Virus record (IMG/VR): IMGVR_UViG_3300032038_009890
Location: 64,001-128,000 of that record
Strand: one strand, 5' to 3'
DNA length: 64,000 nucleotides
Origin: a virus
Lineage: Duplodnaviria > Caudoviricetes
Shown: positions 581 through 45,670 of the stretch, one piece after another
How positions within the stretch are numbered: the stretch's first letter is position 1
Layout: each line of letters opens with the position of its first letter
Notes under the pieces: generated by a model
What the model was told of the DNA's origin: nothing
The model's input: the letters and a program-made list of their open reading frames with translations, nothing else
Databases searched by the model: none
Translations under genes and position numbers: made by a program

Positions 581-1695
581 CAATCATGTTATCCTATGAG
601 CTTTTTATCTCGTAGTTCTTACAATTTCTTGTAAGTTCAGCATATATATTCATACTCAATTATTTGAATATGTTGAACACTCGTGGGCGAATTATTCTAT
701 TCGTCATCGCCTATGCGTTACGATTTCATATCACCTTTTATTTTGATATGATTATCTCGGTATTACCATATTTATAAACTATAATATTCTTTAAAATCTT
801 CGTATAGATTTTTCTTTCTAATCAAACATATATTCGAATTATTGTATATCCATTCTCCGATTTCAAAAATATCTTTTGTTGCTCCCCATTTTATCTCACT
901 CAAATTTCTATCGGCATAATCGTATATTTTGGGGATTCTTATCTTTAAATGCTCTCCTAAATATTCGCCAATATCTTTCATCAATTTATGTATGCCACAA
1001 AACGAAAGTGAATGTAAATATCTTCCGCTATCAATTTTATGTGCTGTAATATTTCCATCACCGTCAAGAATTCCTCTTATCAAATGTGACATCAAATTAT
1101 CATTAATAATAGGTAGGTAAGTATTTAATGTTTTGTTTTGCTCTATCCCATATTTTTTTAAATCTTTTGCCATAATATCACTTCGAACAGCCACTTGAGC
1201 GCATCCTCTTCCATCATATCCAACAGACGTATTAGAATGAACATCTTCAAGAAATCGTTTCAAAATATATTCATCGTCTTCTTTTTGTGTTATTGAGATA
1301 GATGACTGTCTTCCATCTTTTGGCACAAATACATTCCCATCAGTTATAATCATTCCTAAATAGTATGCTTTAAACTCTGTATCTATTATCTCGAAATAAT
1401 GTTCATCCATATTGGGGTTATATACTTGTGCTTTTTTATATCTTTCAATATTATTCTGATTGAATATTTTAATTACTGTTGGATTACTTAGTTCAAACAT
1501 TGTTCCAACATCTTTTATGGTCATTGGCCTACTTTTATAAAAGGCAATTACTTCCTACTCTAGTTCTATTGTAATCGGTTTACCAGTTGGCATTATCATA
1601 CTCCTTTATTTTTATTTAGGGATATAAATTTAGGCTTTACCGATATTGCTCAATTCATTTAATCGTACTATATACAATTAACAGCCACTACTTAT
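581..1695 (-). mobile_element. Group I intron in nrdD (1115 nt) carrying a LAGLIDADG endonuclease
   Basis: Exon 1 ends CAG CT (U at splice site) and can pair with internal guide GGCTG. Intron ends in G (CATGATTG). Joining restores CT|A CCT TTC = L-P-F. Core-like motifs AATATCGGTAAA, GGTAATACCGAG, GTAACGCATAG, AATATATGCTGAACT. Confidence 0.93.
772..1593 (-). CDS. Intron-encoded LAGLIDADG homing endonuclease with N-terminal HTH; in-frame TAG at codon 13
   Basis: YYLGMIITDG and LIRGILDGDG motifs. SD AAAGGAG lies 7 nt before ATG at 1593, in frame with ORF 772..1524 across one TAG at 1555-1557. Confidence 0.85.
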
Positions 1696-2621
1696 AGCTG
1701 GTTTCCACTTCGTGATTGTAATGTATTTAAATTGTGATACATTCCTTCTACACCCTGATAGATTTCACGATCAGTCATATCCAAAGCATACTGATAAGCC
1801 TTTGAATAATGCTTATATACCGTATCCTCAATGGACCAATCTTCTGGTGAAACTATATTCTCAGGAATGCAATTTTCAATATATTTACATCCATCTTTCC
1901 AATGTTTATAGAAGCTTTTCCTAACATAAGGAACCATTGTCCAATCAAGATGAGTAGAACTTACACCGCCAAATTGTTGTAAGCTTTGCAACTGAAACAA
2001 AACAGCCACAAGTTGAAACGCAGTATTAACACTCTGAGCAGGTCTTACATCTGTCTGCCTAGTATTAAATCCATTCTTAAGTAACTTATCAAACGGAACA
2101 CTTAAACAATTATGACACCCAACAACATAGTTATCCAGATCGTGAATATATACTTCATTATTCAGATGATTGTTTCTACTCACTTCAGACATATAATCAT
2201 CGAGAGCCAATTTACGCATCAACTCAGCATCTGCTTCGCCTTTTCTCCCGCCAAAACTGTGCTCATCCACATTAGCATTTTGATTCTGCACATTACTGGC
2301 GGAGACCTTTTCCTTAATTGCTCTCATCCAGGCAGTATTACGTTCACGCACTCTACTACGAGTACTCCTGTAAACAATATAAGCTCTGGCGACATCTTTA
2401 CGATTACTTGCCATGAGCTTATCTTCCACAATATTTTGTATTTCTTCTACATTTAAATCTCTTTTTAGTGACTCAACATATCTAGCAATTTCAGAAGCTT
2501 TATCTTTTGCATGAGAATCGAGTTTGTCGCCGTCTATTTCATAATATGCTTTTAATACGGATTCTTTTATCTTACTTTTATCAAATTCAACAAGTCTTCC
2601 ATCGCGCTTAATTACATTCAC
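1696..2621 (-). CDS. nrdD: NrdD exon 1 with N-terminal ATP-cone
   Basis: VIKRDGRLVEFDKSKI ATP-cone; YIHDLD, HNCL, QFGGVS, NLNTLQSRSGNQ motifs. Confidence 0.95.
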
Positions 2622-2625
2622 ATTA

Positions 2626-3012
2626 TTACTTCCTTTCCAACTTATAATACTCCCTCATATCCTTCTTAATCCTCTCACCTTTCCTGTAGTGATACACACC
2701 TACATCCAAAAGAGCGTCATTAAATTTGGATACCTTACTATACATCCGATTCAGCGCAGACATGATCTTCTGATGCTTAATCGAATAAATCTTTGCCTCG
2801 ACCAGACCCATGCCATACTGTTCATTAAACTCATCACCATCTTGACACACAGCATGTGCCTTTATAGTCACAATATCTTCTTCTGGTAATAAAGCCGCGG
2901 CAATATAATCATTATCTGTATTACTTAGCTTATCAACAATATAGGCCCTGCGGTCAAACACATAGGTCCCAGATACTGTCTTTTTCTCTGCATCAATATC
3001 ATACGTAATCAT
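2626..3012 (-). CDS. Hypothetical phage protein
   Basis: ORF packed against nrdD; AVCQDGDEFNEQYG motif. Confidence 0.7.
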   Translation of the reverse strand: MITYDIDAEKKTVSGTYVFDRRAYIVDKLSNTDNDYIAAALLPEEDIVTIKAHAVCQDGDEFNEQYGMGLVEAKIYSIKHQKIMSALNRMYSKVSKFNDALLDVGVYHYRKGERIKKDMREYYKLERK

Positions 3013-3162
3013 ATTTATTTTTTCTTCCTCTTAAATCTTGGAATTCTTATCTCGGGTAACATGCCGATATGCACCCTGATTACATCCCTACAGGGATAAA
3101 TCCTAGGCCAGAGCATCTTGATTCTCTCCCACATCTCTACCACCCCCTTTCAAAGCAAAACC

Positions 3163-3471
3163 CTAACTATTTCTCAAATCTATAGGATACGGATCAGATT
3201 CCCATTCTGCTCCACAAGTATGGCATCTATAACTATCTATGCGCCAATTATGCCAACGCGAAGGTAAAAACCGACCCCAAAAATCTCCTCTAGCAGGTCC
3301 ATAATAACCTTTACTGGGAACAAGATATTCTAATTCAATTCCTCCAGTAATATAAGGATAAAAATGACTTCTGCTCTCTCCACAGCAGGGACAAACAGCA
3401 AACTTCTTACGGGATTCTTCCTGTACCATCAGATTGGCATCGCAATTATCAGGTAACTTCGTCAGTTTCAT
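3163..3471 (-). CDS. Zinc-ribbon hypothetical protein
   Basis: CPCC and CHTC pairs; one of the few genes ending in TAG. Confidence 0.65.
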   Translation of the reverse strand: MKLTKLPDNCDANLMVQEESRKKFAVCPCCGESRSHFYPYITGGIELEYLVPSKGYYGPARGDFWGRFLPSRWHNWRIDSYRCHTCGAEWESDPYPIDLRNS

Positions 3472-4640
3472 TAAATTCTCTCCCGCAATAAGGACAATAT
3501 TGGAGATGGTCTAAATAAGTACCACTATAGTAATAATCGTCAACTCTACAAATCAACGAAATACTATTATCTTTTTCTTTAACTAATCCAGTATTCCAGT
3601 ATAATGGATTCTTACTAACAACTTCTTCAATATCAACAATCTTTTTACAGAAATCACACATCTAACTACCTCAATATATCAAAACAGCTTTCTTCCGCAG
3701 ACCATACACCTGTGCAATGTAAAAGTAGATCCCTTCTCATCCCTGATAAAATATTTGCCCTGATTCGTGACACAAAAATCAATTCCGCCGGGAGTAAGAG
3801 GACGATAGATCATGTTTTCCTGACGTGTTGTTTCCTTCCATTTCTCAGGTTCACATAAAGAACACATGGTCCACCTCTTATTCCAACTTGTCTACGCCTT
3901 TAAGATAATAAAAACTATTTAAGGTTTCAACAATCGTGACATCTCCATCAACAATGATGCTTCTGATCTTTGTAGTAACCATATCCTTATTAGCATTGGG
4001 CCAAACACAGCGGAAGATTCCTCGACTTCCCACAGAGATTGCTGACTGCACATCGTCAATTATGCGCCCAATGCGACTGGTTGCTTTATCATCATATAAC
4101 TTATCTGCGCCAACTTTGTCTGTGATTTTAACAATTTTCCTAAACATCCTTATAGCCTCATTAAAACATAATGTGCAATCAGTGCAACAAATATTAAGAA
4201 TATATTATAAAGAACACTTGCCTCTTCTTTGAGGAATCCATCAGAATCTATAGGCGAATTAGCCATATAAAAGATTAAGGACCCCGCAAACATACAAATG
4301 GTAAATACAGTGAAATATATAAGCGGATTGATTATGCTAAATATCTTCACGGTAATAAATATAGTAGTCATAGACAATGCGCCTAAGCCCCACCTGTATA
4401 TGTTATTGCCCTTATATTCGACAATTTCCTGCACAAAAATATGATTTCCTAACATTATAATAGCAAGTACGCAACTGAGTAGAAAAATCATCTTGTCATA
4501 TCAGTCCTCTACAACCATAGTTAACGAACAAATCAATGTAAACACATTAATAGGAACAATCCAATAATTATGTGTAATAAATACATTTAAAATTAAACAG
4601 CAGATATTACATAAAGATAATATTACTCCCAATACTCTAG

Positions 4641-4853
4641 TCATTTCTTTTCACCCTTATATGGCTCTGGCATCTCAATCTCCATCCATGCTGTAGCCTC
4701 ATCATAGGCCACGGTCTTACTATTATTCAAAAAATGCCAACGAGGTTCAGCGCCTCCGTCCAGATATGCCTCCCGCGTCTTGTTTTTGCGCGTAATCCAG
4801 ACGCTTTGAAAACGCTTTGGCATTTTATCATTTATTGGAATCCACCTGCCCAT
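4641..4853 (-). CDS. DUF551-like small protein
   Basis: WIPINDKMP...AWMEIEMPEPY pattern; start placed at MGRW (inferred). Confidence 0.65.
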   Translation of the reverse strand: MGRWIPINDKMPKRFQSVWITRKNKTREAYLDGGAEPRWHFLNNSKTVAYDEATAWMEIEMPEPYKGEKK

Positions 4854-5266
4854 TTTCCACCATTTTCTTGTACTTTTCCTCAGTGTAGATACTGGCACTA
4901 CTGAACACTCTTGGTATAATAGTTCCATCTTCACTGATCATATCAACTTCATACTCAATCCATGCCCATCCTCCACCATGGAAGTTGTGTATGCCTTTAA
5001 GAATACCTTTTTTATAGGTATCAACATGCCGCGCAAGAGATTGCACAACACCCGTGCCCTCACAGGTTTTACACGTCAGAATCCAAGGACTCAACCTCTC
5101 ATCTTCTTTGCGATAATACATTTTTCTGGGATAATCAATCTGCATCAACCCTGTATCACGGGTAACATCTCCATGACAAAAAGGGCATTCGATCTCATGA
5201 TACTCATCCTTGGTTTCATGAATATAAACAGTGTCCCCAATAGAAAAAGGGCAATCAATCGTAGTC

Positions 5267-5644
5267 TCAATCATTTTTCTCTTCCTGCATCTTTTCAAAA
5301 ATATAATCCACAACTTTTTTGCCATAATCCGTGGCGGCAGTCACATTATCTGTCGTTATATATGAGCTTGCTACCATACCAAAACACGTTTCTCTGTCGG
5401 GAACAAAAATCGTTATTAACAAGAAGACGATAATTACTTTCGCAATTCTCGACAAAGCCCTCTTATACGATTTTTCATCTTCCTCGCTAATCTTACAGTC
5501 ATCAATATGCGCGGCAACATATACGCCAAATGCAATGACAAATACAACAGTGCTAATTGTCAGCACAACATAAGAAACTTCTTGCAAGCCATTAAAGACC
5601 CGCCCCAAATACACAATCCAAGGACTAATAATATAATTCATCAC
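5267..5644 (-). CDS. Membrane protein, paralog of 13000..13380
   Basis: Two hydrophobic segments; shared ISPWIVYLG and ASSYITTDNVTA. Confidence 0.75.
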   Translation of the reverse strand: MMNYIISPWIVYLGRVFNGLQEVSYVVLTISTVVFVIAFGVYVAAHIDDCKISEEDEKSYKRALSRIAKVIIVFLLITIFVPDRETCFGMVASSYITTDNVTAATDYGKKVVDYIFEKMQEEKND

Positions 5645-7291
5645 TCTACCTTAACTTTCTCAATCCATCTGTGGAAGCCAAAGCACCATTTATAAGCGTC
5701 ATCATCATTCCATCCACAAGCAACCATTTCCTTATAAAGATTTGTTCTGTACCTATCCCAACTCTCCGTATGGATTCCATCAATCGTAGCCTTGTCTCCT
5801 AACTCAACTACTCTTTTTGCAATCTCTACCAGATGGTCAGTATAAGGTGAAAATCCCCATGCAATATGGTTTGCTACATCCATGACATTAAGTGGACGTT
5901 TGGCCCTGCGAATGTAACTTTTAGCAGAATCCAAATCAAACTGGAGATATTCACGTTCGTGCTTATCTATGTAGGATTCCTCGCTAAGTCGAATAATATT
6001 GCCAAACTGCGCGACAACAATGTACGGATAGTAGGGGACGAGATCACGAGAAGTACCAATATGAAAAGGAAGGACATTACCTCCCTGATAAATCTTATAT
6101 TTATCGATGATCTCATCCATTCCAGTCATAATAATTACATCATAAAAATCACATACAGGTGAATATACGCTAATGTCGGCCGCCCCCTTTCTAGCGAGTC
6201 TTTATGGACGGAAACTTAACTTTAATAACCATCTGAATACTTTCGCAAGAATCTCCATACTCAGTAGAGCTTTTTACATTCACAATAGAAACATTCTCGA
6301 TATTTCTTTGAAGGAAATTCACGAGATGATTCCTCTTGAAATACTCCTTAAGATACTCGTAATTCATTTGTATTTCCTCTCAGTGTAATAGCCAAGGCAG
6401 ACGGTGACAATACTAAAACACAGAAGCAATGCGGAGCTAAGATGTAAGCCCCGCAAACGCAAATATTCTGCGCCAACACCAAAAGAGAAAACTCCAAAGC
6501 TCGTCAGACAGCGTGCAAATATAAATAGTCGCCTGTTCCTCATATTACTTCCTCCACAATATCTGGATTCATAATAAGAATCGTATCACAGTCCCATCCA
6601 TAAAGCTTATAATAAAGGTTCTTAATTCTTACATCAATCGCATCAATACCATCTGCCATCATTCGCTCAAAGTCTAGATAAACATTGGTAAAAGGATCGT
6701 CATCGAGACCATTTGCTCTCATAACAGGGTCTGTAAATATCCAGTCGCGATTCTCATCCATTGTTCTTATCATGTCATCAAGGCTGTAAAGATTTAAAAC
6801 ATTTGCGCTCTCACTGATATCAAACTGGAATGACTCACTCCCCCTAAACAAATCCCATTCTTCGTCGAAACACCAGTCGCGCCAACTTCTTTCGCAACAA
6901 ACGGGCGAGGCCCAAAGACCACATCCTCTTTCTGGCTTATTCCATGAATAGCTTCGATTTTTTACAGGAATAAATTTGTCTTTGTCAAAATGATCAGAAC
7001 CATAATGAATGTATCTCATATAATCCCTCCAAAACACCAAACTAGAGAATATTATATGACTTTCCTATGTGTTTGTCAATAGTTTTCGCCTGTAAACTCT
7101 GTTCCACTATTCTTTGCTTCGTAATCCCTTACAAGTTCATGTATGGCAAAAACATTGATCATCTTGGCTCCACAATGATAGCAATAATAATTATTTGAAT
7201 ATTTTAGTTGATCTCCTTCTAAAATTGCTTTACAGTGGTCACAATAAGCCACCCAATCATCTCTTAATATCCAATCTGCCATCATTGTTCC

Positions 7292-7744
7292 TCAATCAGC
7301 ATCTGTATGGATTCCAACATACGGGCAGAAGATAAAGGTAGTCAAAAAATTCTTATTAAAGAATGTATCATCGTTGATAACATAATTGTACATCCCCGGC
7401 AAAGACTGATGATCAAGATAAGGCTCATTTGGGTTAGAACCTATTTTTAATCCCTTGGTTCCGCAATAGTCCACAATTACTTCTTCCAATATACGAAATT
7501 CATCACTATCATATAAATCTTCGATATTATCAAACATATAATACAAGTAAGATACTAGATAACTTAGTTTTTGAGATTGTTCGTAATAATCATCTACAGT
7601 TTTATCAAACCAACCATATCTAGCAACTGTATAACCGTCCTTATCTGTTTCTAAATCTGGATGCTCCATTTTCTTTCCAAAAGTAAGTGAGTGAACACTA
7701 CTTGAATTAGTTTCAAATACATTATAGCGTACTGTATATTTCAT
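7292..7744 (-). CDS. ETNSS-motif protein (stand-alone copy)
   Basis: MKYTVRYNVFETNSSSVHSL and YLDHQS, shared with 53879-55395. Confidence 0.8.
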   Translation of the reverse strand: MKYTVRYNVFETNSSSVHSLTFGKKMEHPDLETDKDGYTVARYGWFDKTVDDYYEQSQKLSYLVSYLYYMFDNIEDLYDSDEFRILEEVIVDYCGTKGLKIGSNPNEPYLDHQSLPGMYNYVINDDTFFNKNFLTTFIFCPYVGIHTDAD

Positions 7745-8572
7745 TTATCATCCCTCTTTTCGCCCCAAGCACAAAAATGATCTCCGTCCATATATTCCTT
7801 TTCGTCAGGCCACCAAATATCACAATATTGACACTCTCCATTAATAGTCATATGAGAATATTTACATTCTTTACAATGAATTATTTCTATTCCCTGCATG
7901 TCCAATATTTTATCAAGAGTATTTCTATCACACGTTCCAGACGTATATAATAATGCATATACCGATGCACTATCTAAGTATTTCGACATTATTTGCCCTC
8001 CTATATTGAATTTCTCATCTTCTACTTTTAAATTATTTTCTATTGCTGTGCGATTTAACTGTGAAAGAATAGTTGCTCCGATAGATAAATAAGGTTCATC
8101 ATTAATAATTTCACATCCACCATATGCAATTATAACTTTTTTAGTATTAGGATTATTGGCTATCATGTCCAATGCATTATATTTTAGTAAGATTTCTTCT
8201 AATTCACTTATATCCATTGAATAAGAAAGCCTGTACTTGTCATAGGGAATGCTATATTCTTTTAAGTCATATTCTTCATCATCAAAAGAATTATCATCAC
8301 CCAGTGGCTCATACACAACTTCACTGATACCTGCGATGGATTTTAAGTTGTTAATAAAATAATCATCAACAAATTTTGTAAATAAGTTAAACCTCATAAA
8401 ATCTCCTTATTCCATGCAAATGTCTTCCAACCATTCAATCAAATAATCTTCTAGGAGATTAATCGTATTAATTTTATCCCAATGATATTCCTTGTCGAAT
8501 GATTCTTTATAAATATCAATCAACTCAGCTATTTTAAGAATCTGGTCTTCAGTAAAGACTACTTCATCCATA

Positions 8573-8986: not shown

Positions 8987-9237
8987 TACGATTCTCCTTC
9001 ATATGGCTCAGGAAACGGCATCCATGCAATATCTGTTTTCAAATATCCTTTACCACTGCCTTTATACCATCCGTCACACCAATCTTGATAGTAGGCAGTT
9101 GATACGCCTCTATTTTTGTTATCATATGTTACTAAATATTTGTCGTTTTCATCTGGTTTTCTTTCGGAACAAGGTATCCACTGAGATGTTCTCATATTAA
9201 GACGGCATAACCTTTCAATTATTTTCTGATTCGTCAT
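8986..9237 (-). CDS. DUF551-like protein
   Basis: WIPCSERKP...IAWMPFPEPY. Confidence 0.75.
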   Translation of the reverse strand: MTNQKIIERLCRLNMRTSQWIPCSERKPDENDKYLVTYDNKNRGVSTAYYQDWCDGWYKGSGKGYLKTDIAWMPFPEPYEGES

Positions 9238-9791: not shown

Positions 9792-10220
9792 TCATTCTAT
9801 CTTTCCTTTATATACTTCGGGCGTAAAATACGGCATCCAAGCTACGCATTTATCTAAATCATGATACGTTTTACTACAAACATTATACACTCCTACCCCC
9901 ACATAGTTTTTCTCAACAGAATCCTCAAATAAAAAACCGTCTATTACTTTTAATTCATCAACCCCGAATCTTTTTATAGATATCCAAAGTGGAGTATAGG
10001 GTGAAGGCGTTTCTTCAGAAAAAAGTTTCCACTGAGTAGGAGACTCTTTATCCTCTGTATTATCCATATGATTTCCACAATTAGGGCAATAATCAGGATA
10101 ATAAAATTCTGCTTTATGGTTTTGTATTGTTTTAAACTGTGTCTGATCATACATTTCTCCGCACTTAGGACACATAAACATGTTATAACCAATATAATCC
10201 CATTTCCCTAGATTTTGCAT
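9792..10220 (-). CDS. Zn-ribbon + DUF551-like protein
   Basis: Paralog of 8573..8986. Confidence 0.7.
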   Translation of the reverse strand: MQNLGKWDYIGYNMFMCPKCGEMYDQTQFKTIQNHKAEFYYPDYCPNCGNHMDNTEDKESPTQWKLFSEETPSPYTPLWISIKRFGVDELKVIDGFLFEDSVEKNYVGVGVYNVCSKTYHDLDKCVAWMPYFTPEVYKGKIE

Positions 10221-10765
10221 TAATCGATCCTCTCAAGATACTGTACAGGTACTTGTTTAATAAGCCAAACACCATTTTCAGACATATAAAATTTATATCC
10301 ATTATCATACATCTCTTTTGCCGCAACTTTAAAAACAACAGGCTTACCATGTCTTTGGCCAACAACTTTGGCAGTTTCGATGTCTTTAGAAAGATGTACA
10401 TATAACCGTGACTTAGGAATCAATCCCATCTGCATGATCGACTCAATAAACTTTTCGCCAGTACCATGAAAGAGGATTTTCGGTGGCACACATTCTTTAA
10501 GCTCTACATCAACAGGAATAAAGTGACCTTGGTTAGCACGAATCATTGTATGGTCCTCATTAAATGAAAAGCGCTTCTTATTATTGTCTCGCACGATTTC
10601 CTCCAGAGAGTCAAGATTAAACCACGGTTCCTGCTTCTGGATGCCAGAAATTAATTCACTGACTTTGGCCCACCCGTGTTCATCCAAGGTAATCCCAATT
10701 GTCTCAGGTTTATGTCGAAGAATCAGTGAAATAAACTTACTGCAATTAGTTAATTCTTTTGTCAT
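10220..10765 (-). CDS. kptA: RNA 2'-phosphotransferase Tpt1/KptA
   Basis: SKFISLILRH, KKRF, IRANQGH, LFHGT, RLYVHLS, NGVWL motifs. Confidence 0.93.
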   Translation of the reverse strand: MTKELTNCSKFISLILRHKPETIGITLDEHGWAKVSELISGIQKQEPWFNLDSLEEIVRDNNKKRFSFNEDHTMIRANQGHFIPVDVELKECVPPKILFHGTGEKFIESIMQMGLIPKSRLYVHLSKDIETAKVVGQRHGKPVVFKVAAKEMYDNGYKFYMSENGVWLIKQVPVQYLERID

Positions 10766-10900
10766 CTTTAATCTTCTCCAAATAATATTAGGCTCTTTTA
10801 ATCTTATAATAATTATTGTTCTTTCTTCGGCTTTCTACCACAACTTTTTTTCTCTGGGCAATATTCAATTAAACCTGCTTAGCTCTCGGGTCATCTAATT

Positions 10901-11524
10901 TCATCCTATAATCAACTCCTTATTTCTATTGCTATAAAAATATTCATTATACGCCTCATACCTCTGATGAATATTTGTCATATCATAGTCATGACTAAGC
11001 GCCCATTCCTTAAATCTTACAAAGAATCCGCAAGCAGAAAACTCAGGACAACCACATCTATAGATACAGTTCGGAACCATCACATCAGACAACTCTTCCT
11101 GCCCCACATTTTTAATTGCAATCTTAACGTCTTCCATATGCTGTCGTGTTTCTGGCGAAGCCTGATAACACAACCTATACCGACTTACATTAATCAAAGC
11201 TTGTGCATTTGCATTGATATCCATATTCACTGGAGTATCTTGTGGAGATTCATCACGATTCTTACCAGTACGATCAGTCCTCTGAGTAGAAACCCATTTG
11301 TCCCAACCTAGCCAATGTCTCGCAAAATGAACAGAAACCCAAGATTTTATCTGCTCAAAACGCCAATGTATCTGGATCAGGCGAATTGGTGAATGTTCTG
11401 ATATCAGGAGATTATGAATAAAAGTAGATGAAGGTTCGTTGTCTGTAGGCTCTTTATTCACCGTATTACGACACTCATTTTTTGCCAGTTTCCAATTAGC
11501 ATTGATGTTGATTATTTTAATCAT
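10901..11524 (-). CDS. thyX: ThyX-like FAD-dependent thymidylate synthase (phage type)
   Basis: EHSPIR, VHFARH, STQRTDR, RLCYQAS, VPNCIYRCGCPEF. Confidence 0.7.
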   Translation of the reverse strand: MIKIININANWKLAKNECRNTVNKEPTDNEPSSTFIHNLLISEHSPIRLIQIHWRFEQIKSWVSVHFARHWLGWDKWVSTQRTDRTGKNRDESPQDTPVNMDINANAQALINVSRYRLCYQASPETRQHMEDVKIAIKNVGQEELSDVMVPNCIYRCGCPEFSACGFFVRFKEWALSHDYDMTNIHQRYEAYNEYFYSNRNKELIIG

Positions 11525-12756
11525 ATAATATCACCGTCCTTAATCATCTTTAGATATGGCAATTTAATTAAATCTATATAAATTTGTTTCCACCTATCAT
11601 CATCTGAGTTTGCAGCATATTTTATAATAGGTATTAACTGGTTATAGTTCAAATTAATTATATATTTGAATTTCATGTTATTGGGAATATAATTGATTAA
11701 AGATACTAAATCGTATCCATTCTTATTATATTCATTTAAAATTGAATTCAAATATATTAATGTATATTCCCAGCAATAACATTTCTCAAATAATTTATGC
11801 TCTTCGCTTGTAAATGAATCACCATAAATTACATTTTGCAAACCGCTTAAACTTCTATTTGTTATTTCTATCAGTTCTTTATAGGTGAGCCCTTCTTTTC
11901 TAAGTGCTTTAACTTTTTCATTATCCAAAGGACTATATTTCATGCTATTTTTATATGCGATGTAGCGTGTTTCTAACGTAATTCCGTCTAGATCATTTCG
12001 ATGTTTATGTAATTCGTTTTCACTTCGAGTGACCCATTCCAGATTTTCCAAGCTATTGTTACCTTTATTCCCATCTATATGATTTACTTCAAGTCCTTCA
12101 TTAGACCTATCCCCAAGCCACGCTTCTGCAACTAATCTATGTACCAATATTCTTTTTTTATATTTTCTACCTCCCATATTCATGTACCAATATCCATGTT
12201 CATCTTGTGTAGTTTCAATTTGTTTTCTTGAAAAATGCTTTATTCTTGTTCCAACAGAATCTGCTCTATCAAATGCCTTAGAGAACACTCGCCCATTTCT
12301 ATAAACTTCGTATTCTCTATCCCCTACTTTATAGATTTTATATTCATCCGTTTCGTAAGGAAATATTCTATCATGACTTCTTTTAACTTTTTTTGGATAA
12401 AAAACTTTTTCCATATCATTTGAAAGATAAAAGTCATCTACTGTATATTTTTCAATATTCTTTCCAATATTATAAGCGATATCAATTTTAAATAGGTCGG
12501 ATATATCATTTATCCATTTTAATGAACTCACTCCATTTAATTCAAATAATATAAAATCAGATAGCTTATTTATACAATTCGTCAATTTAGCATTAGTCAG
12601 AAATTCTTCTGTTGAATTCAATCCCTGAATAATATCATTTTCTTCATCACTACATTGTACTTCCGCAATATTCTTAATTACATCAATTCTTGTCAAGATT
12701 TTTAAGTTGATTGTATCATTAATATCTTCAAACATTTTAAATATCTGTTCTCGCAT
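11521..12756 (-). CDS. Protein with central HNH endonuclease domain
   Basis: VHRLVAEAW...EVNHIDGNKGNNSLENLEWVTRSEN. Confidence 0.85.
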   Translation of the reverse strand: MREQIFKMFEDINDTINLKILTRIDVIKNIAEVQCSDEENDIIQGLNSTEEFLTNAKLTNCINKLSDFILFELNGVSSLKWINDISDLFKIDIAYNIGKNIEKYTVDDFYLSNDMEKVFYPKKVKRSHDRIFPYETDEYKIYKVGDREYEVYRNGRVFSKAFDRADSVGTRIKHFSRKQIETTQDEHGYWYMNMGGRKYKKRILVHRLVAEAWLGDRSNEGLEVNHIDGNKGNNSLENLEWVTRSENELHKHRNDLDGITLETRYIAYKNSMKYSPLDNEKVKALRKEGLTYKELIEITNRSLSGLQNVIYGDSFTSEEHKLFEKCYCWEYTLIYLNSILNEYNKNGYDLVSLINYIPNNMKFKYIINLNYNQLIPIIKYAANSDDDRWKQIYIDLIKLPYLKMIKDGDII

Positions 12757-18071: not shown

Positions 18072-18100
18072 ATTATACGAATAATTTGGCAATTTGTCAA
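18072..18100 (-). promoter_or_regulatory. SigmaA/sigma70 consensus promoter
   Basis: TTGACA-17 nt-TATAAT in an intergenic gap. Confidence 0.85.
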
Positions 18101-18513: not shown

Positions 18514-19392
18514 TTATTTTTCCCCTATCATGTGCAAGAAATCAACCTCAGAAATAATTGGAATACCAAGGTCCTGCGCCTTTTTATTCTTACTAGATGT
18601 GCTATTGATATCATTATTTATCAGGTAGCTTGTATTTTTACTTACTGAACTAGCCACCTTTCCTCCGAGAGCAGTAATCTTATTTACATACATATCACGG
18701 TTCCCACCATTAAGCTTTCCAGTGATTACAAAATTTTTGCCTACCAAAGAAACTCCCCGTAAATCCATTTCGCTAGAAGAATCAGTAGGATTAGTGGAGA
18801 GAATATCACCAGAAGTGCTATTGCCACCAATCCGAAGACAAGAAACAAGAGAACAAAGCTGATCACTATTATCACGGAACCAATTGTGGATATTATCGCT
18901 GATAACTCTTCCAAATCCATCTATCTCCTTAAAATCATATTTATTAGTTGCCGCCTTATCGAATGCCTCCCATTTCTTAAATTTATTGGCTAGGACTTTA
19001 CTCTGGGCAGGACCAATGCCGGGGATACTTAAAGCACAAATAAAATGCGCCAGATCAACATCACGGGACTTTTCGATGGCAGAGAGAAGCTTGTCAATTG
19101 ATCTTTTACCAAATCCAGGAACGGTCTCCAACCTTGCGCGATGGTCTTTTAAATTGTAGATGTCACTAAATCTATTGATGATTCCAAGGTTAATGAATAC
19201 CTCTAGATTCTTCTCGGAAAGCCCGTCAATATCCATGCCACGCTTGGAGACGAAGTGGACAAATCTTCCAAGGAGCTTGCCTGAGCAGTTGGGATTAGTA
19301 CAATAAAGCACTTCGCTATCATCTGTAAATTTTATAATTGTATTTTCGCCGCAATTTGGGCATTTTCGAGGTATATTAAAATAATCCAACAT
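18514..19392 (-). CDS. ligA: NAD-dependent DNA ligase, C-terminal half (Zn finger, HhH, BRCT)
   Basis: IPRKCPNCG...CTNPNC, FVSKRGMDIDGLSEK, PGFGKRS, FVITGKL...SVSKNTSYLI. In-frame ATG at 19392; the frame is continuous with the upstream endonuclease. Confidence 0.88.
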   Translation of the reverse strand: MLDYFNIPRKCPNCGENTIIKFTDDSEVLYCTNPNCSGKLLGRFVHFVSKRGMDIDGLSEKNLEVFINLGIINRFSDIYNLKDHRARLETVPGFGKRSIDKLLSAIEKSRDVDLAHFICALSIPGIGPAQSKVLANKFKKWEAFDKAATNKYDFKEIDGFGRVISDNIHNWFRDNSDQLCSLVSCLRIGGNSTSGDILSTNPTDSSSEMDLRGVSLVGKNFVITGKLNGGNRDMYVNKITALGGKVASSVSKNTSYLINNDINSTSSKNKKAQDLGIPIISEVDFLHMIGEK

Positions 19393-20348
19393 TTCTTCTT
19401 CATTCCTTATCAAGTATTCAGTGGTTTCAAGTTGCAGATCTTCTAATTTTAATAAATCTCTATGTTTATAAGGTATTCTTATGATCGGAATATTATTACG
19501 CAAACAATATAATGTTTTATATAGATCGTTATATCTGATCTTTTTATATTTTCGTTCAGCATCATCTTCGTCTGCCGCAAAATATAATTCCTGTTTAAAA
19601 TGTTGTCTGCCATCAAATTCTATTATATATTGTTTATTAACATAAAAATCAAAATATCCATAATATCCACTATCAGGGAATCTACATCCTTCAAAATATT
19701 TGCCCGTTTCATATTCTATATTCTTTTCATTAAATATTTCTTTTATTTTCTTTTCTCCATAAGACCCCTATAAACATCCACATGATATTTTTTTTGATTG
19801 TAATAAATCGTCACTTGTTGCTTCAATTTTTCTTCCACATTCGCATAAACAAAGCCACGTTGGTCTACAATTCTCATCTTGTTTTATTCTTTTTATTACT
19901 TTTAGCATTCCAAATGTTTGTCCAGTCAAATCAAATGCTCGGTTTTTGTTATTTTTTATAAGTATTTCTTTAGAAAGGCATCCACAAGAAGTCGTATTTC
20001 CACTTTTCAATCTTTCACTTGAAACATATATTTCATTATGTTCGTCACAACTACACCTACACTTCCATATCATTGTCCTTCTCTTATCATCTCTTCCTGC
20101 AAGATTTAAAACAGTTAATCTACCAAATACCTATCCAGTAAGATCCTCGTAACTATGATTTAAACATCCACATGATTTTTTTCTTCCACTCTTTAATTCA
20201 TATGTGCAAGCATAAACAATTGAATTTTCACTACCGCAATCACATATACATTTCCATATTATTTGTCCATCTTTACTTCTATCATTTGTTTTTTCTATTA
20301 CAGTTAGATTGCCAAATTTCTATCCAATTAAATTATATCCTTTTGCCA

Positions 20349-20349
<1 letters not shown>
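19393..20349 (-). mobile_element. Homing endonuclease (three Cys-rich repeats + Vsr/EDxHD-like nuclease) inserted in ligA; contains three in-frame TAG
   Basis: ATG at 20349 overlaps the ligase TAA. Repeats NLIG*KFGNLTV, DLTG*VFGRLTV, DLTGQTFGMLKV; nuclease FDFYV...IEFDGRQH...DLYKTLYCLRNNIPIIRIPY. Confidence 0.85.
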
Positions 20350-21455
<1,106 letters not shown>

Positions 21456-23506
21456 TCACCTCAAAAATAAGCAGTTCTCGTTTCATTAGTGTCGTGATTA
21501 ATAATAGTAACTCTTCGTTCCTTACCACTGAAGTCAACATCATAATTATCTTCCGACATTATTCTAACATATTCATCATAATTAATTTCGCCAGAATCAA
21601 GACGATTTCCCGCATCAATCCATTTATTGTACAGATAATCACCCATAGCTTCTTTAAAAGCTAAACTCATATTTTCGTCCATATTACCCCTCTCTTACGA
21701 ACAGATATGTGCCTTTATGCTTGCCACGATTTTCATATATAAATTCGCCGCCGGGCATAAATCTTCTCACATAGTAATTAATACTATGCTTTTCTCCCCA
21801 TATCTCTTGTAACTTTCCTACGATTTCATCAACTTTAGTTTTTGTATAATGTCTGCCAGATTTTATATTCTCATTGCGAAACAGATTGACGCTTCTTCTA
21901 TATATTTCCTCGCTTGTCATAATCTAAATTTCCCATCCTTATCACGGCGAATCCCCGGAAGTAAATTCAGACTCTTTACTTCTTGCAGATCAAACGTATC
22001 ATCATCCACGTCTACAAACTTCTGGCCTAATCCACTCAGAGTCAGCGCATAAATCTCAAGAAACTTCTCCGTAATCCCTTCAGTGATCGTTGCTGTATTC
22101 TTCATACGTCCATCATCATTTTCCCAGAGTCAACCGTGATAAGGCGCTTCGCTCTGCCAGTAATCGAGATAGAAGATGTTCTTCTCGTAGAATTCTTCTA
22201 ACTTAGTTTTCAGATCGACAAGTTCGTTAAATAATCCCACCATTGGCACTGGGCGGAGATCATATTCCTCGATTAGCTTGTTGATTTCTTCATGCGAATA
22301 CTCAAAATTGCCATGCTTAGTAAGACATGATTTGAATTTCATAGGCTTAATGTCCTCCAAGTTTTAAATCTTTCCCACAACGAAGGATGCTCTTCGTCAT
22401 ACGCCTTTTGAATTTCATTCATTAGGTGTAGAAAAATTGCCGTTTCGGTATATCCACCGATAGGAATCCCAGAGTTAACCTTTGTATGCATATCTACGAA
22501 TTCCTCGACATATTCTTCGCCGAACTCTCTCCTGACGTATTCTTTGCCAAAGTCGAGAAGGGATTTCTTTTTTCTAAAAAACATATTCACACCTCACGGA
22601 CAGCCATCAAGCGCCCAATTCAAAACCCTGATTAGATTCTTAATATCTCTTTCCTCAAATATCAAAAAGCACGAATCTTCATCATAATCATAATCACAGG
22701 TGTCAACTGTTTCAAAGAAACCGTTATATCTTCCATCTCCTCCATCATCATTGATAACGCCACAAGATGCATCTGTACCGTTATCATCTAATTCTATCTG
22801 CATATTATTGCATCGTTCATCACCAAGAACATGACAAACACCATTAAATCCTAGGTTATCATATTTTCCATCACATGAACCGCAGATAACATTCAACCCA
22901 TAATATTCCATGTCACCATTATTGTATTTTGGATTACACTCTTGTGCAAACTCTGCAAACACAGTGCCATTCGGCATCTTAGCCAGTTCAGGCTGAGTAA
23001 CTATTTTCATTTTATTCCCCCTTTCTTATCATCCAGCTTCTCCGATTAATAATCAAAATAGCCAACTCTCGTTTCATTTTTATCACGATCAACAAAAGTA
23101 ATCTTACTTCTCTTAACATCAAATATAAGAGTATGATTTCCTGATACCATCCTCTCATACTCCTCGTAATTTATCTCATTACGCTCAAGCTTATCACCAG
23201 CCTCGACCCACTTATTATAAAACTCTTCACCCATAGCCAACTTAAATGCCTTTGCTAATTTTTCATTCATCTTTATTTGCCCTTTCATTAATCTCGTCCC
23301 AGATTCTGGGAGTAATCTCATAGTATCTCTCAGGCGGAGCATACGGGTCTTTTTCCTCTACATACTGCATAGCGAAAAAATCGTAGTACCCATGCTTACC
23401 TTTCTTTTCTAGTTCCTTAAATGTGCGCTCGATTATATCTGCGTTATAATCGAGCGCTGCACAGTTCTCAACAACATCTTTATACATTTTTTCTCTCTTC
23501 TAATAC

Positions 23507-23532
23507 AAAGGGCGCATCCGAAGATACGCCCT
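23507..23532 (-). terminator. Probable intrinsic terminator
   Basis: AGGGCGTATC-TTCG-GATGCGCCCT followed by a short T run, just after the 23543 stop. Confidence 0.55.
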
Positions 23533-23542
23533 GTAGTTTTCA

Positions 23543-23923
23543 TCAGTCCTTCAACAACTTCTCCAGTTCCTCTACGCTCATGCTCTCCAGAGCATTATCC
23601 TTCTTCTTCTCGATAATATCCATAATCTTCTGGTTCCTAGCCCTCTTCTCCACAGCATCCTTAGCCCTCTGCTGTTCGGCAAGCTTATCCTCTACGATCT
23701 CCTTAACAATCGCAATCTTCTCGCTAAGAACCGTATCCTCAGCATTTGCCTGAGTTAAGAGGGATTCCTCACTCTTCTGGCGCTCAATCTGCTTCAGCTT
23801 CTTATATACGGTGTCAAGGTCCCTAACATTCAGGTCCCAGAGATCCTCGACAGTAATCGCTCCCCGAAAATCAAAGCGATACTTCTTCCTCACAGCATTC
23901 TTAAAAAGATTCACATCAGCCAT
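23543..23923 (-). CDS. Phage coiled-coil protein
   Basis: RGAITVEDLWDL motif; directly follows the 684-aa gene. Confidence 0.75.
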   Translation of the reverse strand: MADVNLFKNAVRKKYRFDFRGAITVEDLWDLNVRDLDTVYKKLKQIERQKSEESLLTQANAEDTVLSEKIAIVKEIVEDKLAEQQRAKDAVEKRARNQKIMDIIEKKKDNALESMSVEELEKLLKD

Positions 23924-23936
23924 TTTCTTTTCTCCT

Positions 23937-25991
23937 TTAAAACTTAATCTTCATAGTGCGCTCGGTTGCGCCACAAACTTTGACAACAAGCTCCGCCCTC
24001 TTAGTAGTGCTGAAACCAAGTCCAGATAACTGATCATCACAGTCCTCAACGTGTACTTTCGTGCCCATAGCTTCCATAACCTTGCGATGCGCAGGATAAA
24101 GCTCTGCGTTAAGGTACTCGTTATAGAACCCATTCGGGGCTTCAGGATTCACGCAGTCCTTCAGCATAAAGAAATAATGCTTATTTCCGCTAGGATTCTC
24201 GCCCCAATAGTTAGGAGACAAACAAATCACACTCACAGGAACAAAATCGTTAGTGGTAACTCCCCAGATATCCTTGGAAGACAAGTCAGACGACAGATAT
24301 TCCTTAATAGAGAACTGACCATTCTTATCAAGAGTCACGTCTGCAACCTTAACATCCGCACCTCCACGAGTATCCCGAGTGTAGTTGTACTGCCTAATCT
24401 CTCCGTTGTACTCAATCTCTGCCCTGAATCCGCCGTGACCACCACGCCCAGTATAGGTATTTACAAAGAACTGATAGGTTCCAATGGGCATCCTACTTAA
24501 GTCAGGCCAAGTGATATTCTCCACGGCAGGAACACCTTTACTAGGATTAATGATATCAATATCCAGATTGCCACCAGTACGGCTAAGCTTATGACCGTAG
24601 TAAATGTGCGTTCCGCCCTTCGGCTCAATACAGTGCGCATCTTCATCATTCTTATTCCATCCAGTAGGGTCATCATTCCACTGGATAGAAAATCTCAGAA
24701 CGCCGTCAACCTTACCTCCGGCAGACTTCACATTCCGCTTAATAACAGAGTCCGTTACATTTCCAGAGTAAGCCCACGAGAAGTTGTTGTTCCACTTAAA
24801 CATCGTCTTGCTCTCGGCAACAACAGGTGCAATCAGAGAGACAAAGTTCTGCTCATGCTTACTCTCAACATAAGCAAATACCTCAGTAGCAGTAGGTAAA
24901 ACATTCGCAATGAAATCCTCGATGCCAATCTCCTCAACCTTAGAAAACTTTTTGGCGGAGGTCTTAACATCTTTTGCCATACTAGCAAAGATATCATTAG
25001 CATCGGCAACTCTCTTTGCCGTGTCCCTGTTAATAAAGAGAATATCCCTGACACTGATATCATCAGCACGAGCAAATCTTCTCCTCAGAGAGTCGAGATA
25101 GCCAAGCTCCGTAATCTTCTTCTGAGCATCCTCAAGCATTCTCTTCGTAAAGATAGGCTTAGAACGCTTGTAGTTCTGCGGAGCAACAACAGCTTCGTAC
25201 TTGCGTACAGCTTCGTCTAACTCAGTCCCAGAAGAAATATCAAGAAGCAAAGTACCGATTGCCGTGTTCTTAATCCTTGCTACACTTACAGGAGTCTTGA
25301 TATTCTCCCAGACAAAATAGTTCTTCTCGGCATCAGTGGTCAGTGCATCATACTTCTTCTTAAACTGAATGAATCCCTCAACAGCTTTCTGATACTCAAC
25401 TCCACGGTAAATAGAATCTTGCTTGATAAGTTCCAGTACCGTATAGAGAGAATCCAAGGTAATCTGTTCCAACGAATTCGAAAAAGCGATCTTGGTGTTA
25501 CTAAACTCTCCCATATAAGTTCCAATGTCAAATTTGTTAACATAGAACTTATCAGGAATCTTAACAAAGAAATGGTCATACCTTATCTGCTCTCCAGATT
25601 CAGTACGCTCAAAGTCATAGTTGCAGCCGTAGCTCGGCTCCGTCTTAGCAAAAACAGACTGGATAGGTCTGGAGTCCTTGATATATGCCGACATTTCAGC
25701 ACAAACAGCGTTCCAAATCTTGTCATCCATCTGAATATCCCAGACAGATTCCAGAACACCATCCTTGATTGCAACTACATTGCCGACTTCCTTAATAAAG
25801 TGCCGACATGTAGAGCAGTCATACTCACGATTCGTGCGGTAGATAGGATTCATCTGCGGAGGGATTGCATCGAGATACCTATTCCACATCTCATCCTTAT
25901 CTACGTTGACCAAGTAAAGAGTATCCCTCTTGTCAAACATAGTTTTGAGATGTTTCTCTACTTCCTGTTTAATCTTCTTAAAATCCAGCAT
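23937..25991 (-). CDS. Large phage protein of unknown function (684 aa)
   Basis: Long ORF with SD; CSTC, APQNYKR, DEDAHC, LDIDI, AVENITW motifs. Confidence 0.85.
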   Translation of the reverse strand: MLDFKKIKQEVEKHLKTMFDKRDTLYLVNVDKDEMWNRYLDAIPPQMNPIYRTNREYDCSTCRHFIKEVGNVVAIKDGVLESVWDIQMDDKIWNAVCAEMSAYIKDSRPIQSVFAKTEPSYGCNYDFERTESGEQIRYDHFFVKIPDKFYVNKFDIGTYMGEFSNTKIAFSNSLEQITLDSLYTVLELIKQDSIYRGVEYQKAVEGFIQFKKKYDALTTDAEKNYFVWENIKTPVSVARIKNTAIGTLLLDISSGTELDEAVRKYEAVVAPQNYKRSKPIFTKRMLEDAQKKITELGYLDSLRRRFARADDISVRDILFINRDTAKRVADANDIFASMAKDVKTSAKKFSKVEEIGIEDFIANVLPTATEVFAYVESKHEQNFVSLIAPVVAESKTMFKWNNNFSWAYSGNVTDSVIKRNVKSAGGKVDGVLRFSIQWNDDPTGWNKNDEDAHCIEPKGGTHIYYGHKLSRTGGNLDIDIINPSKGVPAVENITWPDLSRMPIGTYQFFVNTYTGRGGHGGFRAEIEYNGEIRQYNYTRDTRGGADVKVADVTLDKNGQFSIKEYLSSDLSSKDIWGVTTNDFVPVSVICLSPNYWGENPSGNKHYFFMLKDCVNPEAPNGFYNEYLNAELYPAHRKVMEAMGTKVHVEDCDDQLSGLGFSTTKRAELVVKVCGATERTMKIKF

Positions 25992-26072
25992 AATTTCTCC
26001 TTAAGAGCGCATCATTTAAGATACGCCCTATTCTAGCCATCTCTGAAGTTTTCAAGGAACAGATATAACTAA

Positions 26073-27077
26073 TCAGTGAATATTTACCGTGCATCCTTCA
26101 GGGCAAATCTCATACATCTCTTCGGCAAAGCACGGGTCAAGATTTACACAGCCAAGACTTCCGCTTGTTTCGTAGATGTCCCCGCCAAAATCAGAACGCC
26201 AATTCGCATCGTGGAATCCACAGCCTCCACAGAACGGCATCCAGTAATCCACTGGTCTTCGATAGTTTTCGCCAGTCAGAACTGTGTTTTGTTCCTTACT
26301 GTAGATCGTGTACTGCCCACACGGTGTATCAGTCATTCCCGCAGTTCCTGTTACGCAATCACCAGAAAGGATAACCGTGGTTCCGCAGTAGACGTTCACG
26401 ACTTGAGCGGAGATGTCAACGTCAACCCAGATTTCTCCCTCATCATAGAAAGAGAAATATCCTTCGCAATCCTCGTCGTCGTCATAGTACTCGGCGTCCT
26501 CATATACAGGATAGCCATCATACTCAAGACGATCACAGGCCCACGGCGTAGTCTCATCATACTGGGCAGGGATAATGTCTGGCTCATACTCATAAGCAGA
26601 TTCGTCGGGACAGGTCTCCTCAGAATCCTGTTCATAATAGTATTCGCCTTGACTTCCACATCCTCCATATTCTGTTGGATGTTCATATTCATAGCAGGTG
26701 CCGCCGTAAAGATAGACACTTGCTACAGTTCCATAACAGCCAGTGGTGTAGTCATAGATGATCGTCCTCGACGGGTTATCAGGGCATTGACCTAAAATCT
26801 GCACGGAACTACCCGCGTCAACGGTACCAATAACATTCCCGCAGTCATCACGCAGGTTAGCCCAGTGGGCCATCACTGATCCTCCATTACAGACCTGATA
26901 AGTCTGACGAGGGTAATCAGCAACGCAATAATCATAATCCTCCTCCCAGTCCTCATCCCAGTCCTCGTCAAGAGGATAGATGTATTCCGGGGCACACGGA
27001 TTGTAAACCTCGGTGCAACCAAACACAGATGTCCCAACCATCAATGCGCATAACGCGCCAACAACATATTTATTCAT
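26073..27077 (-). CDS. Exported L,D-transpeptidase (YkuD-like) with SH3b-like domain and acidic linker
   Basis: Signal peptide; VDVDISAQ, CVTG...TPCG, YWMPF...GFHDANWR...GSLGCVNL. Confidence 0.85.
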   Translation of the reverse strand: MNKYVVGALCALMVGTSVFGCTEVYNPCAPEYIYPLDEDWDEDWEEDYDYCVADYPRQTYQVCNGGSVMAHWANLRDDCGNVIGTVDAGSSVQILGQCPDNPSRTIIYDYTTGCYGTVASVYLYGGTCYEYEHPTEYGGCGSQGEYYYEQDSEETCPDESAYEYEPDIIPAQYDETTPWACDRLEYDGYPVYEDAEYYDDDEDCEGYFSFYDEGEIWVDVDISAQVVNVYCGTTVILSGDCVTGTAGMTDTPCGQYTIYSKEQNTVLTGENYRRPVDYWMPFCGGCGFHDANWRSDFGGDIYETSGSLGCVNLDPCFAEEMYEICPEGCTVNIH

Positions 27078-27123
27078 GGTTTTTCCTCCTTGTGTAAAAG
27101 GTGATATTCACCTAACAATCTAA

Positions 27124-27151
27124 ATTATACGGATTTATCCCTATATGTCAA
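27124..27151 (-). promoter_or_regulatory. SigmaA consensus promoter
   Basis: TTGACA-16 nt-TATAAT upstream of the transpeptidase. Confidence 0.75.
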
Positions 27152-27721
27152 TAGTCTTCGCCTGTAAATGTTACTTCATTCATTAAGGTAACCTTCGTCA
27201 TCATCTTCCTCTTCATCATAATCATCTACATAGCGAATCGACCCATTAGGATATCTATATCCAACTATCATCCCTAGTTCTCGGACTGGATGAGAAGCGG
27301 CGTATTCGTCACAATACTCCCCATAATCCGCATCTATCTCATATAGAAAACTCATGTCTTTCCTCATGGATTATATAACAATCAAGGTCTAAGAGGTTCG
27401 CCGGGGCCTTTTGGCCCAAGTAATTCTTAATCGTTGTTGGTATATCATCCTGTTCCCAGTAGAGATAATTCTTTGGATCGATGTCTCTTATATCACACAG
27501 TAATGTTAAAGAAAAGTCTCCGCAATATCCATCACTGGTCATAATGTAATACTCTCCAACTCTTGCGATCAGACAGATATCAGGAATCATAACCTTGACA
27601 TTATCTATATCCAAGATATCATTCCCATACTCAATAATATACGGACAATATTCATATTCTATTGGCACATTTGCCAACTCTTCTTCGACATCACCTAGTC
27701 TTGTTTTAGCAATAAACGAAG

Positions 27722-28261
27722 TCAACATTTAAACAATCCTCTGGCATAATAATAAAAATAGCCATATATAAACTGCCCAGTATATTTCTTATCTTCTAGA
27801 AAAATAACTGGGATACCATATTGATGCCACATACTAAATAGACTCGCCCAAAAAGCCTTTGGCGCGAAGCCTGTATTATAATCGCCGTCTACAAGCTTAC
27901 TATAGGAGGAATTCTCAATAAGCAGAATTTTGTTTTGTGGGGCGCGGGAGAATTCGCGCTTTATTCTACTTTTATCTATGGTTATGTTTCTAGATATTTC
28001 TTCTAAGTTAGCCTTGCGTTCTACAATAATCTCAGAAGATAGGTCAATATCTTCCATAATTCCATACTCGGGAGAATTCCTGATAAGCGGAGCATAATCC
28101 CCGGCATTCAACTTGCGCCTCTCCCAAGAGATTCCTTTTTTATCAAAATACGTCAGGATATGATCGTTCTTGCCCTGCTTCTCGCGTGTATCAACAAGAA
28201 TTGTCATATTCTGAAGTATATTTTTTATCTATGTATCTGTATATCCTTTATTAAATTTCAT
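27722..28261 (-). CDS. ERCC4-domain nuclease (putative resolvase); in-frame TAG at codon 11
   Basis: ILVDTREK, KLNAGDY, IVERKANLEE motifs. SD AAGGAG precedes ATG at 28261; reads MKFNKGYTDT*IKNILQNMTILVDTRE. Confidence 0.85.
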
Positions 28262-45658: not shown

Positions 45659-45670
45659 CTTATCCTCCTA

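Follow-up and report, generated by a model that had tools for sequence, protein, structure and literature searches.

Early in-frame TAG codons in three nuclease genes of the early block of a phage genome with probable late-gene TAG-to-glutamine recoding

We analyzed a 64,000-nucleotide stretch of viral DNA (Duplodnaviria; Caudoviricetes), here called the window. It covers bases 64,001-128,000 of one contig of 217,075 bp, the IMG/VR provirus record IMGVR_UViG_3300032038_009890, for which CheckV gives a completeness of 98%. Three nuclease genes of the window carry five in-frame TAG codons. The window is probably the standard-code early or replication block of a phage that recodes its late genes, and the five TAGs are then glutamine codons that would delay the production of the three nucleases. 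They are a few early-region exceptions to a recoding strategy that has already been described, not a private code of nuclease genes.

Five in-frame TAG codons in three nuclease genes

An earlier reading of the window from its letters alone (the sequence-only reading) had pointed out five in-frame TAGs in three genes, with the first TAG of each gene at codon 10, 11, or 13. All five were located in frame on the minus strand, at 1555-1557, 20320-20322, 20131-20133, 19768-19770, and 28229-28231. The starts of the open reading frames (ORFs) bore out the codon numbers, which are 13 in the ORF 1593..772, 10, 73, and 194 in the ORF from 20349, and 11 in the ORF 28261..27722. None of the three frames contains a TAA, a TGA, or a frameshift. 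The upstream ATG of each gene is preceded by a strong Shine-Dalgarno (SD) sequence (AAGGAG or AGGAG) at a distance of 7-11 nt.

The three products are a LAGLIDADG endonuclease (PF14528 in the homologs), a protein that matches HNH-repeat and homing-endonuclease PHROGs, and an ERCC4-type nuclease (PF02732). Thus, the statement that all three are nucleases was correct. All well-supported sense TAGs of the window are in nuclease genes; the converse is false. If the genes are treated as independent and nucleases as ~7% of the window codons, the chance that all three TAG-bearing genes are nucleases is ~4e-4 by our estimate. The long core genes that had been read as free of TAG indeed lack it, namely DnaE (28445..31603), the 878-aa P-type ATPase, and the 747-aa Pnkp/RNA ligase. 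The coordinates of the features are collected in Table 1.

Table 1. Features of the window and of the surrounding genome (coordinates are those of the window unless marked genome)
Feature	Coordinates	Strand	Remarks
nrdD exon 2, from PFTSINYG	1..580	-	Pfam NRDD; runs off the window
Probable nrdD intron, 1115 nt	581..1695	-	Carries the LAGLIDADG ORF
LAGLIDADG homing endonuclease ORF, 273 aa	772..1593	-	Homologs carry PF14528; SD AAGGAG; TAG is codon 13
nrdD exon 1 (ATP-cone and N-terminal part of NrdD)	1696..2621	-	Pfam NRDD; no TAG
Small Cys-rich gene	3163..3471	-	Ends in TAG as stop; suppression would add a 44-residue tail
LigA C-terminal half (Zn finger, HhH, BRCT)	18514..19392	-	In frame with the endonuclease ORF; internal ATG 19392
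Homing endonuclease, 319 codons (three Zn-ribbon HNH-type repeats and a Vsr/DUF559-like nuclease domain)	19393..20349	-	phrog_374, phrog_559, phrog_9084
LigA N-terminal half (adenylation and OB)	20349..21452	-	
ERCC4-type nuclease, 179 aa	27722..28261	-	Just downstream of DnaE; PF02732 47.2 bits (cut-off 24); SD AAGGAG; TAG 28229-28231
Lipoprotein-like gene	56561..56833	-	Ends in TAG; TGA 7 codons further on
tRNA-shaped sequence, 8-nt anticodon loop AGUCUAAG with CUA	59565..59639	-	Low-threshold ARAGORN only; cloverleaf fold
Late block	genome 1-55.5 kb	+	8.2 TAG per 1000 codons
Early block, includes the window	genome 55.5-136.4 kb	-	0.6 TAG per 1000 codons; TAG in 9/113 genes
Further TAG-poor segment	genome 155-176.3 kb	+	0.5 TAG per 1000 codons; TAG in 3/27 genes
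Late block	genome 176.3-217 kb	+	7.9 TAG per 1000 codons
Candidate tRNA(CUA) with group I intron	genome 177,847-178,131		Outside the window; Rfam, and ARAGORN on the spliced form
Diversity-generating retroelement (DGR)-type reverse transcriptase	genome 214,037-215,284		13 TAGs

Evidence that TAG is decoded as glutamine

The residues found in homologs at the TAG columns were examined. In the reverse transcriptase, the TAG columns contain 31% Gln against a background of 3.2% (120 homologs); one of them has Gln in all 120 homologs and another in 99 of the 120. The TAG column of the LAGLIDADG protein is Gln in 72 of 119 homologs and lies within the conserved N-terminus MPTGxPIT..ELKQ (or MPTGKPIT..ELxQ). 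For the endonuclease between the ligase halves, Gln was found in 23/40, 28/40, and 4/40 homologs at the three TAG columns, the third of which is in a variable linker. The ERCC4 column is Gln in the closest homologs and Glu in more distant ones. Furthermore, an endonuclease of a relative has a TAG at the position of the Q in EFDGRQH of this genome. The repeats with Gln to which the sequence-only reading had aligned two of the TAGs also exist in the window (DLTGQTFG at 19929 and NLEGQVFG at 58923). Judged from these alignments, TAG is a Gln codon in this genome, as had been proposed. The predicted TAG-spanning peptides with Gln are GYTDTQIK for ERCC4, PITIELEQEVIAFYK for the LAGLIDADG protein, and GYNLIGQK for the ligase endonuclease.

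That the three genes are decaying pseudogenes has a negligible probability. Homing endonucleases often decay, and gene calling with code 11 truncates all three genes. However, apart from TAG the frames are intact and their TAG columns are rich in Gln, the endonucleases align with their homologs from end to end, and ~236 other sense TAGs are present in the genome. The sequence-only reading had named three observations that would tell against its proposal (TAG columns without Gln enrichment, no suppressor in the genome, and other signs of decay), and on all three the opposite was found, with the candidate suppressor gene described below.

An RT-2 RNA motif (RF03077, 66.7 bits) is located directly upstream of the reverse transcriptase gene, at 213,720-214,044 of the genome.

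Distribution of TAG across the genome

All long ORFs of the window are on the minus strand. The whole contig was gene-called with TAG as a sense codon, and the densities in Table 1 were obtained from a simple codon-usage gene call. Reading TAG as sense opens giant unbroken ORFs on the plus strand (of 6327, 2858, 1752, and 2282 aa, with 36, 10, 23, and 14 TAGs, respectively). Long ORFs are restored in structural and lysis genes, and a CHAP/SH3 lysin contains 12 TAGs. With the two late blocks pooled, 48 of the 66 genes carry TAG. The sense TAGs of the late genes number ~236 and make up 18% of their Gln codons. TAGs are also present in the GIY-YIG endonucleases of the late block.

The early block comprises ~23,000 codons and is nearly free of TAG outside the exceptions described here. 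Since it is essentially TAG-free, TAG appears to be selected against there. Several TAG-bearing genes of the early block were artefacts of over-long start calls. Thus, the early TAG of Tpt1/KptA (10220..10861) was rejected, because the family match begins at the code-11 start, and the same holds for a radical-SAM gene outside the window. The stops of the early block in the TAG-as-sense calls are 57 TAA and 56 TGA. TAG is depleted as a true stop, and the two window genes that had been read as ending in TAG do so (Table 1). No bias was found in the nucleotide 3′ of TAG, that is, no hint of quadruplet decoding or context selection. No match was obtained when the DnaE DNA was compared with GenBank phages by megablast.

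These results do not bear out the claim that TAG is confined to nuclease genes. The pattern looked selective to the sequence-only reading because only the early block was in view. A transitional code, which had also been considered, or a private one does not apply either, as the distribution matches the published pattern, in which late genes are recoded from TAG to Gln and the replication module keeps the standard code.

The 130 nt past the TAG stop of the small Cys-rich gene (3031-3162, minus strand) are G-rich and contain three further in-frame TAGs. This segment resembles a structured intergenic RNA more than coding sequence.

Recurrent early TAG in ERCC4 orthologs

The ERK catalytic motif of the ERCC4-type nuclease (E81, R82, and K83) is invariant in the ERCC4 alignment, and its 18 N-terminal residues are conserved in homologs. 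The G+C content of the gene is 0.36, a resident-like value, against 0.29-0.30 in the two endonucleases and 0.39 in the C-terminal half of LigA (LigA-C). Its position right after DnaE is kept in relatives. On these compositional and positional grounds, we regard ERCC4 as a resident gene.

A single-sequence scan of IMG/VR with ERCC4 yielded no relatives; a profile scan did find orthologs. We read 48 distinct IMG/VR orthologs regardless of TAG and placed them in a maximum-likelihood tree. Among these, early TAGs (codons 3-12) occur at no fewer than three different columns. A mid-gene TAG was observed in only one ortholog, at codon 45. About 20 orthologs use TAG as the final stop, which suggests that they are standard-code relatives. 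Five orthologs had been cut to ~160 aa by public gene calls, and the N-terminal extension of all five contains an in-frame TAG.

In the tree, TAG occupies codon 11 in the gene of the window, codon 3 in its sister L010, and the YT-X column in L023, all of them different columns. L018/L019 and L050 represent further separate origins. Thus, early TAG arose at least five times, against one origin elsewhere in the 178-codon gene. This recurrence speaks for selection of a block placed right at the beginning of the ERCC4 ORF.

Could these TAGs be true stops? The nucleases would then follow leader peptides of 9-12 residues and be re-initiated at the downstream ATGs (28207 and 1524). The code-11 ORF from 28207 does keep the whole ERCC4 domain, and the public gene call P0122 starts there. 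We consider this very improbable for the following reasons. The two ATGs 3′ of the TAGs, which code-11 calling would pick, have no SD sequence, and the residues on both sides of the TAG are conserved in homologs. The ligase endonuclease contains two further TAGs, and its nuclease domain, after the last of them, has no start codon. Moreover, in several early-TAG orthologs of ERCC4, L020 and L035 among them, no Met separates the TAG from the nuclease domain. In such orthologs the TAG must be decoded.

A more specific proposal is that the early TAG of ERCC4 is a selected time-lock on a resident, non-mobile, structure-specific nuclease of the replication operon, with at least five independent origins in related recoded phages, and that only a self-spliced tRNA(CUA) opens it. 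We put it forward tentatively, as a possibility somewhat short of even. If true, the lock would be a two-step RNA-level switch of the genetic code that schedules nuclease activity. The early TAGs of ERCC4 would offer evidence, specific to position, that recoding is selected as a means of timing; the published recoding surveys considered here tested this only by codon counts per gene family.

A candidate suppressor tRNA interrupted by a group I intron

The sequence-only reading had suggested looking elsewhere in the genome for a Gln-type tRNA(CUA), a release factor, or an aminoacyl-tRNA synthetase. With default settings, ARAGORN reported ten tRNAs, none with a CUA anticodon. A candidate gene for such a tRNA was nevertheless found outside the window, interrupted by an intron; a suppressor tRNA of this form is overlooked by default tools. 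The Rfam group I intron inside it scored 53.5 bits (cut-off 50; E=1e-12), and the intron is 197 nt long. Of the joins compatible with a 7-nt anticodon loop, CUCU|AAA alone combines a U ahead of the 5′ splice site with an intron-final G. Since this is the sole join that obeys U|...G|, the anticodon would be CUA. The product spliced in silico, 88 nt, was called as tRNA(cta) by ARAGORN. In this product, A1 is mismatched with C72, residue 73 is A, and the variable arm is long (class II shape). The gene stands at the code border, as plus-strand genes are TAG-free up to 176,318 and TAG-bearing from 176,803. An exact search for the 5′ exon/intron junction of the suppressor found nothing.

Proposed mechanism and points against it

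With host decoding only, ribosomes that enter the three nuclease genes would stop after 9-12 codons. Removal of the 197-nt intron from the tRNA(CUA) precursor would form the CUA anticodon. Once the tRNA is made, full-length nucleases would arise along with the structural and lysis proteins. The early TAG would then act as a translational time-lock, sited so as to prevent any partial product. The genome would thereby be a single-genome example of gene-by-gene recoding, in which the replication block is host-readable at once, and the genes for structural and lysis proteins, together with a few potentially harmful early-block nucleases, need the phage's own suppressor tRNA.

Several observations weigh against this mechanism. 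The HNH endonuclease genes 58201..58944 and 11521..12756 of the window contain no TAG, so that gating is not general for nucleases. The first-TAG position in late genes is indistinguishable from uniform (Kolmogorov-Smirnov p=0.6), so that early placement is no rule across the genome. The N-terminus of ERCC4 is variable and rich in E, K, and Q, which may ease the fixation of TAG by drift. A long variable arm is not expected for tRNA-Gln. Neither a release factor (PF00472) nor GlnRS/GluRS (PF00749) was found in the genome. Finally, we infer the splicing of the tRNA(CUA), its charging with Gln, and the timing of nuclease production. The idea that amber readthrough delays nucleases is, with this reservation about timing, plausible and is favoured by the recurrent N-terminal TAGs of the ERCC4 orthologs.

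The same uniform placement in late genes would fit an explanation in which the TAGs are neutral Gln codons. Homing endonucleases would move among recoded phages under the late-gene code, and the N-terminus of ERCC4 would tolerate TAG. The two endonucleases of the window agree with this: their G+C content is low when compared with that of LigA-C, and TAG accounts for 22% of their Gln codons, as in late genes. The TAG-bearing GIY-YIG endonucleases of the late block also agree. In contrast, ERCC4 has a resident-like composition and a conserved synteny after DnaE, its early TAGs outnumber the mid-gene one by origin, and the rest of the early block is nearly without TAG, i.e., TAG is selected against. 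In view of these points, we consider neutrality unlikely. Import of the genes from a recoded phage, which the sequence-only reading had raised, need not be invoked, but may contribute for the two low-GC homing endonucleases.

Endonucleases inserted in nrdD and ligA

The LAGLIDADG ORF interrupts nrdD. Exon 1 (...NTLQSRSGNQL) was aligned up to residue 314 of PDB 8p23_A, a solved NrdD. The second residue of exon 2 was aligned to residue 316, and its first residue thus corresponds to residue 315. Exon 2 lies directly after a TGA, and its first 16 codons include no start codon. Joining CAGCU| (1696) to |ACCUUUC (580) restores ...NQLPFTS... with no residue lost or gained, and fits the U/G rule, with U (1696) as the last base of the 5′ exon and G (581) as that of the intron. 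This seamless join points to an intron of 1115 nt (1695..581). A group I ribozyme core was not found around the nrdD ORF (Rfam Intron_gpI, E up to 1-10), which is a weak negative because the ORF may split the core.

The arrangement in ligA is different. The TAA of the N-terminal half (LigA-N) overlaps the ATG of the endonuclease (TAATG). The endonuclease lacks its own stop codon and reads in frame into LigA-C; its stand-alone homologs end at query residues 314-319. Suppression would yield an endonuclease::LigA-C fusion of 611 aa, and ATG 19392 could serve as a start for LigA-C by itself. The ligase is broken at the OB/Zn-finger boundary; LigA-N corresponds to residues 14-338 of PDB 9hu3_A and LigA-C to 9hu3_B from residue 4. 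An intron was considered, and U|...G| joins are possible, but the group I intron model gave no match around the endonuclease. Because the endonuclease ORF fills the insertion and the two-subunit ligase 9hu3 breaks at the same point, the comparison favours a split ligA gene rather than an intron-interrupted one.

In the related contig L010 (512-1390), a 292-aa endonuclease of the same Vsr-like type interrupts DnaE. This endonuclease has 5 TAGs, and the DnaE pieces have none.

Comparison with known systems

Late-gene recoding of TAG or TGA has been described in ~200-kb gut phages, in which the replication modules are variably standard-code and suppressor tRNAs are located beside the recoded genes (Borges et al., 10.1101/2021.08.26.457843). 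A late-gene pattern of recoding is also known from crAss-like phages (Yutin et al. 2021, PMC7886860), and proteomic proof of stop-codon recoding in phages has been provided (Peters et al. 2022, PMC9523058). With the gut phages that use code 15, the present genome shares the concentration of TAG in structural and lysis genes, a standard-code replication module, the rarity of TAG as a stop, a candidate suppressor tRNA near the recoded block, and a size of ~200 kb. It differs in that a group I intron interrupts the CUA anticodon, the variable arm of the tRNA is long, and no release factor or aminoacyl-tRNA synthetase is encoded.

In Agate phages, a group I intron endonuclease in an early gene is rich in recoded TGA, and a delay of its production was proposed (Borges et al., 10.1101/2021.08.26.457843). 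Here, too, homing endonucleases are found in early genes (nrdD and ligA), recoded stops are absent from the host gene, and the proposed logic of early splicing and late endonuclease translation is the same. However, the recoded codon is TAG and not TGA, and for the nrdD intron Rfam sees no ribozyme core. A further difference concerns the ligA insertion, in which a free-standing endonuclease gene is seemingly fused in frame to the downstream half-gene. The delay mechanism is the published model of Borges et al., and this genome is a further example of it.

The early TAGs of the window may also be compared with other known controls of nuclease genes. Gene 49 of phage T4 (endonuclease VII) is translated only late, because its early transcript hides the ribosome-binding site. 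In both cases, early translation of a structure-specific DNA nuclease would be blocked post-transcriptionally at the start of the ORF. In the present case, the block would be an amber codon that awaits a suppressor tRNA, not an RNA hairpin. As for ligA, nrdA/mobE of Aeromonas phage Aeh1 is a gene in pieces created by a homing endonuclease. The two-subunit ligase 9hu3 (chains A and B) shares the cut at the OB/Zn-finger boundary. Unlike in these two systems, the endonuclease ORF between the ligase halves has no stop and runs in frame into LigA-C.

Beyond the literature cited here, three features appear to be new: the repeated occurrence of an N-terminal TAG in ERCC4 as a resident gene, the in-frame endonuclease/LigA-C fusion, and the suppressor anticodon interrupted by a group I intron. 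Gene calling with the standard code truncates or splits such genes, and public ERCC4 calls begin at an internal Met.

The tRNA cluster and other features of the window

The tRNA-shaped sequence at 59565..59639 was considered as a second suppressor. It is unconfirmed, as Rfam reports no tRNA there. An exact-arm search of IMG/VR for its relatives gave only chance matches in coding DNA.

Three Rfam-supported tRNA genes on the minus strand (60070-60208, 61265-61378, and 63213-63331) have inserts of 54-67 nt in or beside the anticodon arm. Two of the three inserts have the motif ..AGUCAyuAAyCAGCAAAU..CGCC in common. The anticodons of these tRNAs, read by eye, look like UAC/Val, GUC/Asp, and UGG/Pro, and none is CUA. 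A tRNA-Leu-like 5′ half (GGTGGCGGAATAGGTAGACGC, at ~59755-59868, minus strand) apparently also holds an insert. A 62-nt tRNA-like element at 63844-63905 (minus strand; tRNA model, 45.8 bits) is without an anticodon arm. At 59500-59760 (minus strand), the tRNA-shaped sequences of the cluster are flanked by hairpins that are almost identical, GGCAG(R)GGAC..(Y)CTGCC with GAA after them, and that may be processing signals. The window also encodes a Tpt1/KptA RNA 2′-phosphotransferase (10220-10765, minus strand) and the 747-aa Pnkp/RNA-ligase fusion (48992-51235, minus strand). Together, they make up a toolkit for RNA repair or tRNA splicing, in a genome where interrupted tRNAs abound.

Three tandem phrog_5698 paralogs are present at 44442-46273 on the minus strand. 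The gene at 40136-41299 (minus strand) strongly matches phrog_1211 (E=1e-50), labelled '2-aminooxy adenylosuccinate synthetase', which we read as PurZ-like. This hints that 2-aminoadenine may replace adenine in the phage DNA.

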